Positions 42,001-48,000 of a stretch of 64,000 nucleotides of DNA are shown here, piece by piece (position 1 is the first letter of the stretch; each line of letters begins with the position of its first letter). The stretch is from positions 1-64,000 of the forward strand of contig NZ_MWQY01000009.1 in assembly GCF_002087085.1 (NCBI RefSeq). Direction: 5' to 3'. Position numbers: made by a program.

Positions 42001-45000
42001 ACCCGAAAATCCTGTTCCCACAGGGGAATACGGGCGCTCAACTCGTCGATATAACGTCCAGCCGTAGCCCGGTGCACGCCAAGCCGTCTGGCGATTTCCG
42101 CCCTCCTCAGTCCCTCGGGATGAGAAAGCAGAAGAAGTTCCAGCTGGTTCAGTCGTTCACTTTTGTTGCCTGCATATTTCATCTCCAAGTCCTTGTCATG
42201 TAGCTGAAAGTTCTCCTCACACAAGTGTCTTTATAACAGTTCAGTGTTGCAGCCACCGCAACAAAGACAAATAAATTACAATTTTTTAGTATTTTGAGTT
42301 ATTTGATAAGTATAACAGTATTACAGCAACTAGTAAAGATAACTATTCCCCGTAGCCCGGGGAATAGTCAGAACATAAAAGGTAAAGAAAGGAGATAAAA
42401 AGAGATCAGGCTTCCTCGCGAGAGACCTCGAGAACTTCAACCAGCGCTTCTGGATCGAGCCGGAAGGCAAAGCCTTTTCCCTCGTAAAAACCATGCTCCC
42501 GGATAAGATGGATATGCAGATCAGAGTACGAGATCTCCCTGCCGTGCTTTTCATTACGCACCGTCGTGGTGGTCTTCTCAAAAAGCCCTTGATCCTCGAA
42601 AGGGCATGGCAGTTTTCCCCTGACCGAATCGACCCGCACAAGAATTCCGGGTTCTACGGTTACAAATTCTCCCAGACCCTTTGCACCACCGTCCCGAAGG
42701 AACTGCATCCTGTTGGCTATAGCCTCATGGCTGACGTCCAGACGCTGGACTGCAGCTTCATCTTCTATGATTATATCCAGCAGGTGTCTCTGGTCCCTGC
42801 CCAGGAAACCTTCAAGAGTCAGTACCCCGGGAGCCATGTTTGCCTGGGCCCGCTTCATTTGCTGGGTTTGCTTCATGTTTTCGCTCCTCCTTAAATTCCG
42901 AATAGTAAAACAGCAAATCAGCCGAACTTGTCAAAATAGATAAGATCTTCGGGAACACCGTTTTTCGTGAGGACATTCACGCAGGCGTCGATCATTCCCG
43001 GGCTGCCGCAGAGGTAACCTTCCACATTTTCCCCGCTCTCCATATGGCGGTCCAGCACGTCCGTGATGAGTCCGACCTCACCTTCCCATTCGTCTTCCGG
43101 TTCAGGCTCCGAGAGGGCGGGAATGAACTGAAAGTTGGGCAGTTTCTTTTCAAGTTCCCGCATTTCATCTATCAGGAACAGGTCCTTTTTGGTTCGGGCG
43201 CCGAAAAAGTAGCGCACCCTGCGGTTTATCCCCTTGTCGAGCATATCCAGCAGAATTGCCTTTATGGGGGCCATACCCGAACCGCCGGCGATGCAGACGA
43301 CCTCGCGCTCTGTATCCCGCAGGAAGAAATCCCCGTAGGGACCATTGATGGTTACCTGGTCCCCCTCTTTCAGATACTTATGCACATAGGTGGTACAGAT
43401 CCCGTTGGGGACCAGACGGATCTCGAGTTCAATCTCTCCGGTACTCGAAGGCGGAGAGGACATTGAATAGGCCCGGTAGACAGGTTCATCGGTGAGTTCG
43501 TACTCCGGCACCTGAAACTGGATAAACTGACCGGCGACCATGTCTATGGTGTCCGGATCATTCAGGGTAAGGGTAACTTCCTTGATATCGTGAGTAAGAT
43601 CCCGGATGCGCTTGACGGTTGTTGCATACTCCTTGACGTTGAAGAGTTCTTCCGGAATCCGGATCCGCATATCCTGCTTTACCTTGAGCTGGCAGGAAAG
43701 ACGGACGTTCTTTTCCCGTTCCTCTTCGCTTATCCAGGGCAGCTCGGTGGGAAGATACTGCCCGGCTCCCTCTTCTACAACGACCTTGCACAGTCCACAG
43801 GATCCCCGCCCGCCGCAGGCGGAGGGAATAAAGACCTCCTGTTCCATAAGAGTGCCCAGAAGGGGTTTTCCGCCGCGGACGGTGTATTCGTGATCGTCGT
43901 TGATAGTCAGTTTTACCTCGCCGTAATTCGCGATTGTCGCATCGGCAATAACCATCAACAGGGCAAGGAAAGCGGAAATGGCAGAGACGGCTCCAATACT
44001 GATCAAAAATGCCGACAGGGGAAACATAGGGCCTCCTTTAGTTGATGTTGATCATGCCGGTAAAGCCCATGAAGGCCAGAGCCATCATGCCGGTGATAAT
44101 CAGGGTGATTCCGGCCCCCTCCATTCCCCGGGGGACCTTTGCCTTGGCCAGCTTCTGCCGGATTCCGGCCATTGCCATTATGGCGAGCCACCAGCCGAGC
44201 CCCGACCCGAGCCCGTAGAAGAAGCTGGACAGCAGGGTGTACTCCCGGATCACCATGAAGAGACTTACTCCCAGAATCGCGCAGTTAACGGTAATGAGGG
44301 GAAGAAAGATACCCAGCGCAGCGTACAGGGGCTCCGAGACCCGCTCGATTATCATCTCCACCAGCTGTACAAAGGCCGCGATGACGATGATGAATACGAT
44401 AAAACGCAGATAGGTGAGTCCCAGGGGATCCAGAATGAAGTAATAGACCAGATAATTCAGCAGACTGGTAGAGGCCATGACAAAGGTCACCGCCGTCCCC
44501 AGCCCCAGGGAGGTCTTTATTTCCCGGGAAACGCTCAGGAATGAGCACATTCCCAGATAATTTGTAAGAAGTATATTATTGGTAAAAATGGCGCCAAAGA
44601 ATATTGCCATTGCCATACCCCAGTCCATCATGCTTTGGCCTCCTCTTTTTCTTTCAGAAATACCCCTTTAACGACCCAGATAAAGATCGCCAGCATAAAA
44701 AAGGCACCAGGGGGCATAACCATGATCGCCCAGTTTGTCCACCAGTCTCCCATTACCTGAAAACCGAAAATGGTACCCGAACCCATGAGCTCCCGGAAAA
44801 AGGCAATGACCAGGAGTACATAGGAGTAGCCGATACCCGATGCCACTCCGTCAATCAGGGAGATTCCCGGGGGATTGTTCAGGGCAAAAGCTTCGGCGCG
44901 GCCCATGATAATACAGTTGGTTATGATCAGGCCGACATAGGGCCCGAGCTGACGGGAGATATCCGGCAGATAGGCCTTCAGCACAATATCCACAATAATC

Positions 45001-48000
45001 ACATAGGAAGCGATAATCAGGGTCTCCGCCATCATGCGTACCCGGCCTGGTATTTTCTTCCGCAGCAGGGATACGGTAAATCCCGAAAGGGTGGTAGTAA
45101 ACAGCACTCCCAGGCTCATTACCAGGGTATTTCGGAAGTTATTGGTAACCGCCAGGGTTGAACATATTCCCAGAATCTGGGCAAATACGGGGTTATCAGC
45201 GCCTATGGCGCCGACGAATACTTTCTTGGCCTGTCCTCTGGCCATCAGCGCACCTCCTTCAGCAGTGCAGCCGCTTCTTCAGGGCTGTCGTTAACCATGT
45301 CCCGGACATAATTTGAGGTATAGGTTGCTCCGGTAATGGCATTGACCTCATTGGGACCGGTATTTTCCGCATCCTCCCTGACAAGGGAAAAGGGCGGAGA
45401 TTTCTGCCGGAACTGGGTCTTGAACCATTCTTCTTCGATACGGGCTCCGAGTCCGGGGGTCTCATTCTGTTTAATGAAGTCTATACCTGTCATGGTCTTG
45501 AGATCTGCATCAAAACCGATCAGGGCCTCAATCTCTCCCCAGAGACCAGGTCCGGTGACGCGAAAAGCGTAGGCCTGGCCTCCGTCGATCTCAAAAACGC
45601 CGGGTTTACCGTCCACCATGTATTCCTTTACATGCTCGGAGTAGACCTGGTTTATCTGATTGTTGCTTTCCGGGACCTGGATACCCGCACTGAAAAGCAC
45701 TGCCTTCTTCAGGAATATGGTCTCGTTCTCCTCCACCAGAGAAGCGGTCTGCAGGTAGATACCCGAGATAGCCGAGATAAAAACCACGGTGAGAAATACC
45801 ATAAAGAGAATGGGATAGACTCTTTCCTTGAAAAACGATACCTCCTGCATTACGCTGCTCCTTCTGCTTTGGCCTTCTTCCGCTTCCGGGTTTCAACTAT
45901 TGTATAGTTTAGAAGGGGGGCAAACATGTTGGCAAGAAGAATGGCGAAGGTGATTCCCTCCGGCCAGATGGAAAAGGTACGTATAAGAACTGTGAGAATC
46001 CCGATAAAAGCCCCGTAAATCCAACGGCCCAGGTTGGTTGTCTGCGCCGACGAAACGGGGTCGGTCGCCATGTACATCATTCCATAGAGAATACTGCCGG
46101 CGAACAGCGCGTAGTGGGGAGGAATGGCCCCCTCGACCCCGGAGAAGAAGAGGATGCTCTGCATGCCAAGAAAACCGAGAATCCCCGGCACCACAATATG
46201 CCAGGAGGCAGTCTTCTGTATCATCAGAATCAGACCGGTTATTATGATCAGCACAGCGGAGGTTTCTCCCAGAGACCCGGCGGTGGAACCGATGAAAAGA
46301 TCCATAAAGGGGACTGCTTTTCCCGCTGCAAGATCAATCAGCGGTGTAGCCTGGGATACCGTATCGACCGCAGGCTGCCAGGCGACAAAGCCTCCAAGGG
46401 CTCCTCCTACGGGCTGCACAAAGCGTGAGGAGAGGTGATATCCGAAGCTTGCGTAGATAAACGCCCTGCCGGAAATCGCGGGATTGAATACATTGCGCCC
46501 GAAACCGCCGAAAACCATCTTTCCGAAGATTACTCCGAAGGCTATGCCCACCCCGGCAATCCAGAAAGGGATTGTGGGGGGAAGGGAGAGGGCAAAAAGG
46601 AAGTTGGTCACAAAGACCGCAGAAGAGACCTTCTGCTTCCCTCCCCTGACAAAGATGTACTCCGATAGAAAACCAACAACATTTACAAACGCCAGAATCG
46701 CAAGGGATCGCCAGCCGTAAAAATAGACCGAAGCGATCACCAGCGGTATCAGGGCATAGACAACCTTGAGCATTATCGGCTGCTTCTGAATAACGCTATT
46801 TATTTTTGCCATATTCATCCCTTTACTATATAAGACTGCTGAGAAATGTCAATTTAAAGCTATCGACTGCTTCAATATAGATGTTCCTAAAGTTTAACGT
46901 CAAAGAAAAAAGAGAATTTCCCAAGGAGAATTTTTATTAGTACCTTAACGATGAAAGATGTTTGCCGGTAAGACCAATTCTTACTATTTTCATCAGGTTA
47001 TATGCGGCCGGTCCGGCATCTTTCGGAAAACATGCCAGAAAACAGGAGAGTAGAATGACAAAATCGGCTTTTATGCAGGAACTTGAAAACATGCTGGATA
47101 TCGCAAAGACTGCGGTCCTTGCAACGGTCAGCGCAGACGGGTCGCCGGCAATGCGCTGGATGACGCCCTCGGTAATTCGCGGTCGTGCCGGGGCCCTCTA
47201 TGCGGTCACCTCCCGCACCTTCGCAAAAAGCGAACATCTGGCAAAAAACGCACAGGTTCAGTGGCTGCTGCAGAGCAAATCCCTGGACAAAATCATTACC
47301 GTCAACGGCAAGGTCAACATAATCGAAAACTCAGCCATGAAAGCGGAGGTCCTTGAAGCTATCGGGCCACGGCTCCCGGTTTTCTGGCGTGTCAATCCGG
47401 ATCCCGCGAATCTGGTGGTACTGGAAACAGTTGTGACAGAGGGCACCGTATTCATTCCCATGCGGGGCGAAAAGGATACGGTAAAATTCAATTAAGCCAA
47501 GGAGGCTCCATGAGTCTGGTAAAAAAATACGGAAAAGAGACGACCCTTTCCCTGCTTCAAAGCATGCTTTTGATGCGACGCTTCGAAGAAAAAGCGGGTC
47601 AGATGTACGGTCTGCGAAAAATCGGCGGCTTCTGTCACCTGTATATCGGCCAGGAAGCAGTTGCTGCGGGGACAATCGGAGCACTGGATTTAAAAAGTGA
47701 TTATATCATAGGCGGCTACCGCGACCATGGCCACGCCCTCGCAGTGGGGATGGACCCCAAGGCGATCATGGCGGAGCTCTACGGCAAGGCCACGGGCTGT
47801 TCAAAGGGCAAAGGCGGCTCCATGCACATGTATTCCGCGGAAAAGCATATGCTCGGAGGAAACGGGATTGTGGGCAGCCAGATTCCCGTCGGCACAGGGG
47901 TAGCCTGGAAAATCAAGTACATGGAAGAAAATGGAGTGGTCCTCTGCTATTTCGGCGACGGGGCCATACACCAGGGCGCGTTTCACGAAAGCCTCAACCT

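Follow-up and report, generated by a model that had tools for sequence, protein, structure and literature searches.

The window analysed here, 64,000 nucleotides of contig NZ_MWQY01000009.1, carries an Nqr-type operon in which nqrA is missing and a sixth gene follows nqrF. Two questions arise from this locus: what the sixth gene, here called X, does beside the other five, and where a pump without NqrA delivers its electrons.

Organization of the operon and its core subunits

The unit occupies positions 46818-42406 of the minus strand and consists of six head-to-tail ORFs, nqrB-C-D-E-F and X, a gene of 156 aa. On the same strand it is flanked by a promoter-like site 5' of nqrB (TTGACA, 16 nt, TATAGT; 46825..46852; 11 of 12 consensus positions) and by a terminator-like hairpin directly 3' of X (42340..42370; 13-bp stem and T-rich tail), both identified by consensus match only. 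The gap between nqrF and X is mostly 3-25 nt (143 loci), and a 677-nt contig from a sediment RNA library, covering positions 42497-43154, spans the nqrF-X junction. Based on these sites, the short gaps and the RNA contig across the junction, nqrB-C-D-E-F-X is one transcription unit.

The first gene (45850..46818, minus strand like the whole operon) encodes an NqrB/RnfD-like membrane subunit of 322 aa without the long NqrB N-terminal region (PF03116, NQR2_RnfD_RnfE, 278.7 bits). Among the NCBIfam models it scored above the cut-off of rnfD (TIGR01946, 220.7 bits, cut-off 207) and below those of nqrB (245 and 222 bits, cut-offs 414 and 350, respectively). It is followed by an NqrC/RnfG-like FMN-binding subunit of 201 aa (45245..45850; FMN_bind 65 bits; nqrC 82 bits, cut-off 144; rnfG 65 bits, cut-off 102), by NqrD of 205 aa (44628..45245; Rnf-Nqr; NF006777 NqrD 244.9 bits, above its cut-off of 235) and by an NqrE/RnfA-like subunit of 197 aa (44038..44631; Rnf-Nqr; nqrE 227.9 bits, cut-off 247.6; rnfA 225.1 bits, cut-off 229.3). 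The fifth gene (42918..44027) encodes a short-type NqrF of 369 aa with an N-terminal hydrophobic stretch, read from the sequence as a putative membrane anchor, and 2Fe-2S, FAD and NAD domains (Fer2, FAD_binding_6 and NAD_binding_1). It matched nqrF TIGR01941 in two pieces (321 bits, cut-off 295), and also BenC (190 bits) and MmoC (184 bits).

Homologues of NqrB, C, D, E and F are thus arranged in the same order as in V. cholerae NqrABCDEF, and NqrF has the same 2Fe-2S, FAD and NAD domains. Inspection of the translations by eye placed cysteines of NqrD and NqrE, and a TGAT motif of NqrC, at the positions of the V. cholerae Nqr cofactor sites. However, in the operon described here NqrA is missing and X is added. 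Residues 39-315 of the NqrB-like subunit align with residues 130-408 of V. cholerae NqrB (183 bits), a protein of 415 aa of whose first 129 residues most are missing here, and V. cholerae NqrF (408 aa, 251 bits) has extra FAD-domain segments that the short type lacks. The operon also resembles Rnf (RnfCDGEAB), with which it shares the core of four membrane subunits: the B subunit is of RnfD length, passes the rnfD cut-off and aligns end to end with RnfD of C. tetanomorphum (residues 12-304 with 21-298, 152 bits). Unlike Rnf, it holds neither RnfC nor RnfB, and its input is NqrF (NADH) and not the ferredoxin-type RnfB; moreover, the host genome holds a complete Rnf elsewhere, with rnfC, D, G, E, A and B in a row on a separate contig.

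Absence of NqrA and distribution in Spirochaetota

In this genome (97.2% complete, 79 contigs) the best NQRA_N match scored 22.2 bits, below the cut-off of 25 and within an unrelated frame of 1846 aa, and the best match of nqrA TIGR01936 (16.8 bits) fell within RnfC. The operon encodes an Nqr/Rnf-type membrane redox complex, NqrB(RnfD-like)-C-D-E-F, without NqrA. The first-pass annotation had described such an nqrBCDEF set beside a complete rnf, and the family profiles, the two NqrA models and the rnf row all agree with it. Its statement that NqrA and the NqrA-less form exclude each other also held for X among 201 sampled Spirochaetota genomes: X occurred in 35, with NqrA above cut-off in 0/35, and NqrA passed the cut-off in 16 genomes plus one where the gene is split over two contigs, with X in 0/17. 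Seven of the 35 X-bearing genomes hold in addition sub-threshold NqrA/RnfC-like genes (80-162 bits), which sit in other nqr-like operons where the context is readable. In this sample the NqrA-less form is commoner than canonical Nqr, in line with what had been proposed for the phylum; the short NqrF type was found in 38/201 genomes and the canonical type in 15/201.

An NqrA-less nqrBCDEF is already in print, for Thermotoga thermarum, T. lettingae, Clostridium ultunense, Alkaliphilus metalliredigens and 'Ca. Izimaplasma' ZiA1 (PMC4148951, 2014; PMC5924567, 2018; PMC6256511). In the passages of these papers that deal with the operon, the same five genes are described in the same order, and the other reactant, the acceptor, is called unknown (PMC4148951, PMC5924567); neither a sixth gene nor rubredoxin is mentioned in those passages (PMC4148951, PMC5924567, PMC6256511). 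What is new here are the findings on X.

Sequence and predicted fold of X

X (42406..42876, minus strand, directly 3' of nqrF) had been annotated as a conserved operon member of unknown fold, and the searches bear this out. No Pfam or NCBIfam family matched it at E<=0.01, no PDB sequence match was found, its AF2 model gave no match in the PDB by Foldseek at E<=0.001, and the best Z with VIA-align was 2.5 among 48,161 chains. The model itself is confident, with a pLDDT of 90.6 from a 24-row alignment, a value higher than the 76 given earlier. Homologues form 448 protein clusters at E<=1e-3, and X is as conserved (55-65%) as the core subunits. His123, His128, Arg139, Asp39, Arg30 and Gly/Pro residues are invariant or nearly so. 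Since the sole conserved Cys is replaced by Ser in 6/46 and 5/84 aligned members, X is probably cofactor-less; no redox-cofactor motif was found in it.

Small, cytoplasmic and encoded last in the operon, X could regulate it transcriptionally or post-translationally, with the one conserved Cys as a possible peroxide sensor. We regard this as very improbable: X has no recognizable DNA-binding domain (HTH_50 matched only 3/84 members, at E>=0.026), the Cys is not kept in all members, and conservation as strong as in the core subunits, together with fusions to redox domains (see below), fits a stoichiometric partner better.

Association of X with NqrF

The gene directly upstream of X is nqrF in 78/80 genome loci and in 77/80 metagenome loci of a subfamily 33-44% identical to X. 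Four of these loci are contig starts without upstream room, one of them among the genome loci; among the loci with room, X stands directly 3' of nqrF in 155/156. The position after nqrF, reported earlier for every locus examined, thus holds with one true exception, a copy that stands alone (L029). Seen from the nqrF side, two short-NqrF operons (G159 and G141) have no X; together with the lone copy they make X a conserved member, but not the strict hallmark, of the NqrA-less pump that it had been called.

In three loci (L098, L099 and L119) X follows an anchor-less NqrF-like gene of 335-341 aa, and no nqrBCDE was found in the 2.6-6 kb read upstream. In a quick tree the soluble forms nest within the clade of X-type NqrF in at least two places, with L099 sister to L167 at 100% support; the soluble NqrF+X modules are derived from the pump form. 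Because X persists beside anchor-less reductases without nqrBCDE, the evidence points to NqrF, and not NqrB, as its partner. This bears on the first-pass proposal that X is a candidate subunit or an output or docking module: a conserved operon member it is, but with NqrF favoured over NqrB as its partner. In the more specific version of that proposal, X would dock in place of NqrA on the cytoplasmic side of NqrB and serve there as the electron output module. The mutual exclusion of NqrA and X in the sample would fit, as would the N-terminal part absent from the NqrB-like subunit, the part of NqrB that wraps NqrA. Yet X occurs without an NqrB-like gene in the 2.6-6 kb read upstream in the three soluble loci, short-type operons without X exist, and X has no redox-cofactor motif and a Cys replaceable by Ser, which leaves this substitution quite improbable.

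A complex prediction of NqrF (residues 36-369) with X gave a median score of 0.55 (runs 0.24, 0.64 and 0.55), and the best of three controls 0.00; the runs agreed in at least 81% of contacts, with a partner pLDDT of at least 84. In the calibration the mark was reached by 116/157 solved complexes and 2/215 mismatched pairs, and passes at <=0.60 comprised only 18/157 solved complexes and both passing mismatches. The tool's verdict on this predicted complex is weak support for a physical binding of X to NqrF. The same data could also be read to mean that X serves the structure, stability or assembly of the short NqrF and takes no part in acceptor choice; it might, for example, keep NqrF positioned, a role already speculated on for NqrA. 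Its strict adjacency to nqrF, the weakly supported complex and its apparently cofactor-less nature would suit such a role. However, the soluble NqrF-like proteins keep X though they need no positioning in a membrane complex.

Rubredoxin and the oxidative-stress context

A same-strand rubredoxin gene lies <=400 nt 3' of X in 11/77 and 20/65 loci with room (31/142), and four loci (L094, L095, L096 and L098) contain an X-rubredoxin fusion ORF. The fusion of L095 closes a full nqrBCDEF operon, and L094 lies on the contig of P0204, a cluster with three members on three contigs. X is also fused once to a rubrerythrin domain and once to a nitroreductase domain. None of these fusions would be expected of a mere scaffold, the reading in which rubredoxin lies nearby only through a common stress regulon or through inertia of gene order; the 111/142 loci without an adjacent rubredoxin favour that reading and count against a link to rubredoxin. 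On balance we consider a pure scaffold rather unlikely.

Rubredoxin was present in 35/35 X-bearing Spirochaetota genomes vs 103/166 others, and within about 350 nt 3' of X in 15/35. These adjacency counts are not independent, because most of the 15 cases belong to one family (f14). Rubredoxin is common regardless of X, as the 103/166 X-less genomes show, and this counts against the rubredoxin reading.

Only two rubredoxin matches were found in the genome studied here, both 1.8-2.2 kb from X: one gene at 40414..40635 on the minus strand (PF00301, 90.4 bits), a candidate electron acceptor, and a second, convergent with it, at 40196..40336 on the plus strand (79.7 bits). Between the first and X lie, on the minus strand, a rubredoxin-dependent desulfoferrodoxin (superoxide reductase; 40592..40966; Desulfoferrodox 72 bits, Desulfoferrod_N 62 bits) and a Fur-family regulator most like PerR (41036..41431; FUR 79.5 bits; PerR models 86-90 bits, below their cut-offs). 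Oxidative-stress genes occur <=7 kb away in 27/54 and 11/25 of the loci of at least 10 kb. About half of the long loci have no such neighbour, and the region before nqrB showed no PerR-box-like site, both of which count against the rubredoxin reading. The three soluble NqrF+X loci stand inside oxidative-stress clusters; in L099 the order is Fur-family regulator, rubrerythrin, Redoxin/AhpC-TSA peroxidase, ODP-lactamase (flavodiiron-type), ferritin, rubrerythrin-like, NqrF-like, X and glucose-6-phosphate dehydrogenase.

The electron acceptor

Unlike in V. cholerae Nqr, the acceptor of the NqrA-less complex is probably not ubiquinone. The first-pass annotation had left the acceptor open; rubredoxin, encoded directly after X or fused to it in some loci, is now a specific candidate. 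Because X adjoins, and is sometimes fused to, rubredoxin, the data suggest that the electrons go to the rubredoxin-based chain by which anaerobes defend themselves against oxygen. That X, itself without a cofactor, acts in the cytoplasm as a partner of the NADH-oxidising NqrF and couples it to rubredoxin has, in our judgement, about an even chance of being correct. In such a scheme NADH would reduce NqrF, first at its FAD and next at its 2Fe-2S cluster, and the electrons would end on rubredoxin, held or docked by X, which would feed superoxide reductase, rubrerythrin and flavodiiron proteins. In a 'series' route they would cross NqrDE, NqrC and NqrB before reaching rubredoxin, which would make the complex an NADH:rubredoxin oxidoreductase that pumps ions. 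In a 'branch' route they would exit straight from NqrF, and the membrane path would have another acceptor; such direct transfer bypasses the pump, and the retention of the membrane genes would therefore be unexplained. The X-less short-type operons, the lone X and the weak complex score stand against the coupling of NqrF to rubredoxin by X.

Alternatively, the complex may still be a quinone reductase: its NqrB-like subunit would pass electrons, without the help of NqrA, to menaquinone or a different prenylated quinone, and X would be an accessory unrelated to the acceptor. One contig of the genome holds together a UbiA-like prenyltransferase (MqnP model 258 bits, below cut-off), a menaquinone decarboxylase (TIGR03701, 641 bits, cut-off 496) and UbiX, which would allow a lipid quinone as acceptor; a review also has NQR electrons passing directly to quinone in the membrane, with NqrA lacking an assigned function. 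Against this, neither an MqnA/MqnD family match nor cytochrome bd was found in the genome, MqnC scored 44 bits against a cut-off of 428, and there is just one UbiA-family gene. In addition, the N-terminal NqrB region, which contributes to the quinone and inhibitor site, is absent from the NqrB-like subunit, and the X-rubredoxin fusions would be left unexplained. We therefore judge a quinone reductase unlikely.

The coupling of NqrF to rubredoxin would have a parallel in the chain of anaerobes in which NADH:rubredoxin oxidoreductase works with rubredoxin, superoxide reductase, rubrerythrin and flavodiiron proteins: in both, the gene of a flavoprotein that oxidises NAD(P)H neighbours those of rubredoxin and of detoxifying enzymes that depend on it. 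The classical oxidoreductase is a soluble flavoprotein of the pyridine-nucleotide-disulfide type, whereas NqrF is of the FNR type with a 2Fe-2S domain, requires or retains X and in most cases belongs to a membrane pump. For X itself, the effectors MmoB and DmpM of multicomponent monooxygenases offer a comparison. These cofactor-less proteins work with MmoC/BenC-type reductases and, like X, are small and encoded with a 2Fe-2S and FAD reductase of the same superfamily as NqrF; no likeness of fold or sequence to X was found, and the analogy would be one of role only. Finally, a gene downstream of X in the window (41532..42224, minus strand) encodes an HTH-domain protein of 230 aa (weak HTH_11 and HTH_IclR matches, below cut-offs) that may be a local regulator, and a homologue of it lies downstream of X in 8/80 loci.

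The nqr operon and its likeness to Nqr and Rnf

The minus strand of the window carries six consecutive ORFs in head-to-tail order. They encode an NqrB/RnfD-like protein (46818-45850, 322 aa; NQR2_RnfD_RnfE, 279 bits), an NqrC-like protein (45850-45245, 201 aa; FMN_bind, 65 bits), NqrD (45245-44628, 205 aa; Rnf-Nqr; NF006777, 244.9 bits, cut-off 235), an NqrE/RnfA-like protein (44631-44038, 197 aa; Rnf-Nqr), NqrF (44027-42918, 369 aa; Fer2, FAD_binding_6 and NAD_binding_1) and a 156-aa protein without a family match, here called X (42876-42406). A promoter-like site agreeing at 11 of 12 positions is located upstream of the first gene (46852-46825, minus strand), and a terminator-like hairpin with a 13-bp stem and a T-rich tail lies directly 3' of X (42370-42340, minus strand). 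Contigs from RNA libraries (sediment metatranscriptomes, in which DNA carry-over is possible) cover most of the operon. One of 677 nt, which does not equal a single transcript, spans the nqrF-X junction at 42497-43154 with 5 differences in 658 nt. The bin just 3' of X (42206-42439) had no RNA-contig cover in four of four runs, although such contigs cannot mark a transcript end.

NqrF scored above the equivalog cut-off (TIGR01941, 321.3 against 295 bits) and has its 2Fe-2S, FAD and NADH domains. V. cholerae NqrF is longer by 39 residues and has FAD-domain segments that this protein lacks. The 197-aa NqrE/RnfA-like subunit gave 227.9 bits with the nqrE model TIGR01940 (cut-off 247.6), nearly tied with rnfA (225.1 bits, also just below cut-off). 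Only residues 39-315 of the B subunit align to V. cholerae NqrB, at 130-408 (183 bits), whereas the alignment to the 310-aa RnfD of C. tetanomorphum runs end to end (152 bits). At 322 aa it falls short of the ~410-aa NqrB and does not reach the cut-offs of NF003756 (245 against 414) and TIGR01937 (222 against 350), whereas it passes that of the RnfD subfamily, TIGR01946 (220.7 against 207.05). It is thus of RnfD length, yet NqrB outscores RnfD among PDB chains. The cysteines of NqrD and NqrE and the TGAT motif of NqrC, located by eye in the translations, sit at what we take to be the cofactor sites. Close to where NqrB has its SGAT site, the B subunit reads D-T-V-S-Q-A-T-P-L; that the two correspond we infer, because the alignment register to V. 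cholerae NqrB is offset. As judged from these sequences the complex is a hybrid of Nqr and Rnf and, with its RnfD-length B subunit and NqrF input module, it bears on the origin of Nqr from Rnf.

The source genome comprises 4.2 Mb in 79 contigs and is 97.2% complete. Its best match to NQRA_N (PF05896) reached 22.2 bits, below the cut-off of 25, within an unrelated 1846-aa frame, and the best to the nqrA model TIGR01936 reached 16.8 bits, within RnfC. The genes rnfC, D, G, E, A and B are consecutive on contig C5; RnfC and RnfB, missing from the nqr operon, are both encoded there. The flavin transferase ApbE was found in the genome, and the matches to NqrM were all below cut-off. The ORFs, family scores and genome-wide NqrA search show that the operon described in the first-pass annotation, nqrBCDEF plus a sixth gene without NqrA and beside a complete rnf set on C5, is real.

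NqrA and X among Spirochaetota genomes

An nqrF match at E≤1e-30 was present in 53 of 201 sampled Spirochaetota genomes, 15 with the canonical form and 38 with the short type, which is matched in two pieces. Fourteen of the canonical genomes gave single full-length matches of 586-696 bits, and in G078 the match was partial. X occurs in 35 of the 201 genomes, all within the 38 with short-type NqrF. In the other three, nqrBCDEF is followed by an unrelated opposite-strand gene (G159, 99% complete), nqrDEF by a 456-aa membrane protein (G141, 64% complete), or the contig end falls inside nqrF (G098). NqrA was above cut-off in 16 genomes, plus G078, where it is split across two contigs. These 17 include all 15 genomes with canonical NqrF and none has X, so that NqrA above cut-off and X exclude each other among the 201 genomes.

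Sub-threshold NqrA-like matches of 80-162 bits were seen in seven X-bearing genomes (G022, G060, G070, G127, G134, G169 and G176). Those of G060, G127 and G134 belong to other operons, because they lie ~4 kb before a second NqrF-like gene (364-366 aa) on another contig. Some genomes of one family, f14, have two further nqr-like operons (G060:C4:129058-164470; G127:C26:1219-16588; G134:C9:8475-26977). One combines a divergent NqrA/RnfC-like gene (103-162 bits to nqrA) with the 364-366-aa NqrF-like gene, and the other an NqrA-like gene with only an N-terminal 151-188-aa piece of NqrF.

The X protein family

X is single-copy in the source genome. At E≤1e-3, 448 of 495 candidate clusters were relatives; the 120 of these 448 that were listed are ~155 aa long with 57-100% identity, and every named one is 'hypothetical'. 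The protein Atlas likewise returned only 'hypothetical protein' clusters for X. A profile run against 1.84 billion representatives matched 1,520 at E≤0.001, 624 at E≤1e-10 and 80 at E≤1e-30. Taxon labels of the relatives include Spirochaetota, Lentisphaerota/Verrucomicrobiota, Bacillota, Macinerneyibacteriota, Armatimonadota, Planctomycetota and Cloacimonadota.

The AF2 model of X (pLDDT 90.6, pTM 0.86) has three helices, a four-stranded sheet and two further helices. The earlier statement that the sixth gene has no Pfam or PDB-fold match was borne out: X has no Pfam match at E≤1, its model has no Foldseek match in the PDB at E≤0.001, the best Z of a wide VIA-align search was 2.5, and an HMM of 84 members gave a best E of 0.61 against PDB sequences. 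MmoB/DmpM-type effectors were not among the Foldseek or VIA-align matches (best Z of all, 2.5), and PADLOC assigned X to 0 families. X does not reach the gathering score of DUF7919 (PF25535, 27 bits). A few distant members match this domain weakly, 3 of 84 relatives at E of at least 0.027; it reached 23.6 bits in the database protein P0245 and is carried by 13% of the members of one Atlas cluster.

G87, P92, H128, F130 and G133 are invariant among 84 diverse members, and F24, G26, D28, R30, D39, C91, K101, L120, H123, R139 and P142 are at least 90% conserved. Ser replaces the sole cysteine, Cys91, in 6 of 46 and 5 of 84 members. Neither a Cys-ligated metal nor a redox thiol is thus likely to be a general property of the family, and a metal centre formed by Cys91, His123 and His128 was rejected on the same grounds. 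Three long relatives without any Pfam family, P0122 (945 aa), P0123 (885 aa) and P0163 (2506 aa), hold 2-4 divergent copies of the X domain each, and the P0122 copies seen are without the cysteine.

Association of X with nqrF

A genome scan found 217 stretches with an X relative, of which the best 80 were kept; 65 of these were labelled Spirochaet*, and the others included Victivallales, Verrucomicrobiota, Bacillota, Mcinerneyibacteriota and Armatimonadia. In these 80, X is 54-90% identical to the window protein, a range similar to that seen for NqrF (62-96%) and higher than for NqrC (34-86%). A metagenome-contig scan begun from a distant X subfamily gave 509 relatives, 80 of them kept, in which X is 32-44% identical to the window protein save for two close copies. 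The first-pass annotation had X after nqrF in every locus that it examined. This position was found in 78 of the best 80 of 217 genome loci and in 77 of the 80 (of 509) metagenome loci, with a gap of mostly 3-25 nt, and X stood at the contig start in the remaining three metagenome loci and in the genome locus L061. The rule is not universal: L029 has no nqr gene in the 6.3 kb upstream of X, and G159 and G141 have nqrF without X.

X also accompanies NqrF where no other pump genes lie nearby. In loci L098, L099 and L119 it lies 0-15 nt after genes for soluble NqrF-like proteins of 341, 337 and 335 aa, respectively, which begin at the ferredoxin domain and have no membrane anchor, and no nqrB-E genes were found in the 2.6-6 kb upstream. 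In L096, NqrF is anchored and no nqrE lies within its 889 nt upstream. A quick IQ-TREE analysis of 58 NqrF sequences, rooted at midpoint, placed the canonical forms in one clade (support 100) and the X-type forms in a large group with G141 and G159, both without X, as basal branches. The soluble forms branch from within the metagenome clade of the X type, at two points or more, and L099 is sister to L167 (support 100). Since they are nested there, the soluble NqrF-X modules look derived from the pump form with X retained, and the idea that such a module was the ancestor of NqrF was rejected because the soluble forms lie within the membrane-anchored clade of this quick tree. X accompanies NqrF rather than the membrane subunits.

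Several long family members carry X fused to other Pfam domains, namely rubredoxin in P0204 (210 aa) and P0201 (frameshifted tail), rubrerythrin in P0152 and nitroreductase in P0196. P0204 has three cluster members on three contigs and the remaining fusions are singletons. At the DNA level, fused X-rubredoxin ORFs were found in L094, L095, L096 and L098, and the one in L095 closes a complete nqrBCDEF operon. AF2 modelled the L095 fusion (210 aa) with pLDDT 90.7 and pTM 0.72; the linker had pLDDT 69 and the packing of the domains is ambiguous. P0121 (281 aa), which joins an NqrE N-terminus, an NqrF C-terminus and X in one frame, was discarded as most likely an assembly or deletion chimera, and P0222 (AhpC N-terminus with truncated X), P0203 and P0225 also look like chimeras.

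Rubredoxin and oxygen-defence genes near X

In the window, X is followed by a 230-aa protein with a weak HTH match under Pfam cut-offs (41532-42224, minus strand), a Fur/PerR-like regulator, desulfoferrodoxin and rubredoxin, and a second rubredoxin is convergent to the first. The 4.2-Mb genome has no rubredoxin match besides these two convergent neighbours (40196-40336, plus strand, and 40429-40569, minus strand). The former is placed directly after a metH-like gene ending at 40178, and the latter follows desulfoferrodoxin. A separate same-strand rubredoxin gene begins no more than 400 nt after X in 11 of the 77 genome loci and 20 of the 65 metagenome loci that extend at least 350 nt beyond X. 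Thus a NAD(P)H-oxidising flavoprotein, NqrF, is encoded with rubredoxin, as in NADH:rubredoxin oxidoreductase systems. Rubredoxin is present in 138 of the 201 Spirochaetota genomes: in 35/35 with X against 103/166 without it. It lies within ~350 nt after X in 15 of the 35; these cases are not independent because they come mostly from one family (f14). Fourteen of the 15 have a single rubredoxin match, and G176, which has two, is not among them.

We counted genes in 7-kb flanks of 80 genome loci (best of 217) and 80 metagenome loci (of 509), with query names checked by Pfam. The numbers of genome and metagenome loci were, respectively, 27 and 26 for rubredoxin, 13 and 13 for desulfoferrodoxin, 18 and 7 for rubrerythrin, 6 and 13 for rubrerythrin-like proteins, 4 and 14 for flavodiiron-type proteins (ODP lactamase), 11 and 12 for ferritin, 0 and 11 for Redoxin/AhpC-TSA peroxidases and 14 and 6 for Fur/PerR-like regulators. 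Among loci of at least 10 kb, 27 of 54 from genomes and 11 of 25 from metagenomes had any of the listed oxidative-stress genes; about half of these long loci had none. In gene content the soluble loci L099 and L119 resemble textbook clusters for oxygen defence, in which the NqrF-like gene and X take the place expected of a rubredoxin reductase. Both also have a glucose-6-phosphate dehydrogenase gene after X (L099 7752-9296; L119 5509-7059), which hints at NADPH as a possible donor in the soluble loci; the 7-kb flanks contain a homologue in 13 of 80 metagenome loci and in 4 of 80 genome loci.

Predicted NqrF-X complex and the candidate electron acceptor

A complex of NqrF residues 36-369, FAD and a 2Fe-2S cluster with X was predicted from 46-row alignments of both proteins. 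Three runs scored 0.24, 0.64 and 0.55 (median 0.55) against 0.00 for the best of three controls, graded 'weak support' by the tool; the runs share at least 81% of contacts, with partner pLDDT of at least 84. In a calibration without ligands and with alignments other than those used here, 116 of 157 solved complexes reached the score mark, as did 2 of 215 mismatched pairs. Passes at ≤0.60 comprise only 18 of the 157 solved complexes and both mismatches that passed.

The most economical account, to which we give even chances, takes X for a partner of NqrF without a cofactor of its own, one that links the reductase to rubredoxin, in a system that would feed NADH electrons to rubredoxin-dependent enzymes. 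Against this NqrF-X-rubredoxin coupling stand the facts that rubredoxin is mostly not adjacent to X and is common among anaerobes regardless, that the short-type operons of G159 and G141 do without X, and that the support for predicted NqrF-X binding is weak. Electrons might pass in series from NqrF through NqrDE, NqrC and NqrB to rubredoxin, which X would hold between NqrF and NqrB, or by a branch from NqrF directly to rubredoxin, the membrane path then ending elsewhere. The stand-alone soluble NqrF-X modules, some with rubredoxin, favour an action of X at NqrF and are compatible with either route in the pump. With midpoint potentials of ~-320 mV for NADH, near 0 mV for rubredoxins and ~-74 mV for menaquinone, the span from NADH to rubredoxin resembles that from NADH to menaquinone and could drive a pump. 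NqrBCDEF-X might be an ion-pumping NADH:rubredoxin oxidoreductase, its electrons crossing the membrane loop to a rubredoxin held by X beside NqrF/NqrB, a proposal that we consider rather improbable. The series route would fit the speculation, cited in a 2025 review, that NqrA may position NqrF or else stabilise NqrB (PMC12174285).

A quinone was considered as well. The only UbiA-family gene of the source genome (258 bits on the MqnP model, under cut-off) adjoins UbiX and a decarboxylase of the menaquinone type (TIGR03701, 641 bits, cut-off 496), at G000:C34:86400-89300 (locus L174, 4409-7329), and with this UbiA-like/UbiD/UbiX trio a prenylated quinone may be present. MqnA/D had no match in the genome and MqnC none above cut-off, so de novo menaquinone synthesis is not evident; no such pathway was found there, the classical Men pathway being judged by the single UbiA-family match, and cytochrome bd was likewise absent from the matches.

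If the pump did reduce rubredoxin, quinone- and cytochrome-free anaerobes would conserve energy from the reduction of O2, superoxide and peroxide by flavodiiron proteins, superoxide reductase and rubrerythrin. Such quinone-free 'respiration' of oxygen species would couple oxidative-stress defence to ion-gradient formation in many anaerobes and would answer the question, posed in 2014, of the reaction partner of the NqrA-less Nqr. If it did not, NqrF and X would still be a new type of two-protein rubredoxin reductase.

Nqr operons without NqrA have appeared in genome papers since 2014, which give their second substrate as unknown. A 2018 comparison lists nqrBCDEF without NqrA in Clostridium ultunense, Pseudothermotoga lettingae, P. 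thermarum and Alkaliphilus metalliredigens and proposes that the acceptor has a potential below that of quinone (PMC5924567); another paper gives NqrBCDEF for 'Ca. Izimaplasma' ZiA1 (PMC6256511). The available parts of papers noting the NqrA-less operon, these two included, do not mention the sixth gene. In the accessible sections of the 2025 RNF/NQR review (PMC12174285) we found no discussion of NqrA-less or hybrid forms or of Spirochaetota, and in those of the 2014 evolution paper (PMC4014512) no mention of nqrA absence, with Spirochaetes once in a table. Within the literature on NqrF/nqrBCDEF, rubredoxin oxidoreductase and DUF7919, we found no paper tying the NqrA-less pump or X to rubredoxin. 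NqrA-less nqrBCDEF is thus already in print; added here are X, a widespread unannotated family without known fold, as sixth component and rubredoxin as a specific, testable candidate acceptor.

Other features of the window

The 230-aa HTH protein may be a local regulator, since 8 of 80 genome loci encode a homologue downstream of X. A perfect palindrome, ATTGTTATTGACAAT (41459-41473), overlaps the promoter-like site of the Fur/PerR-like gene and may be that gene's own operator. PerR control of the nqr operon was rejected: with one mismatch allowed, ATTGTTATTGACAAT occurs three times in the window against 1.05 expected, none of them before nqrB. Lastly, a 614-aa open frame contains a weak RnfC-like match at 57859-58260 on the minus strand (36 bits, model positions 95-222) and probably encodes another NADH-binding iron-sulfur flavoprotein.
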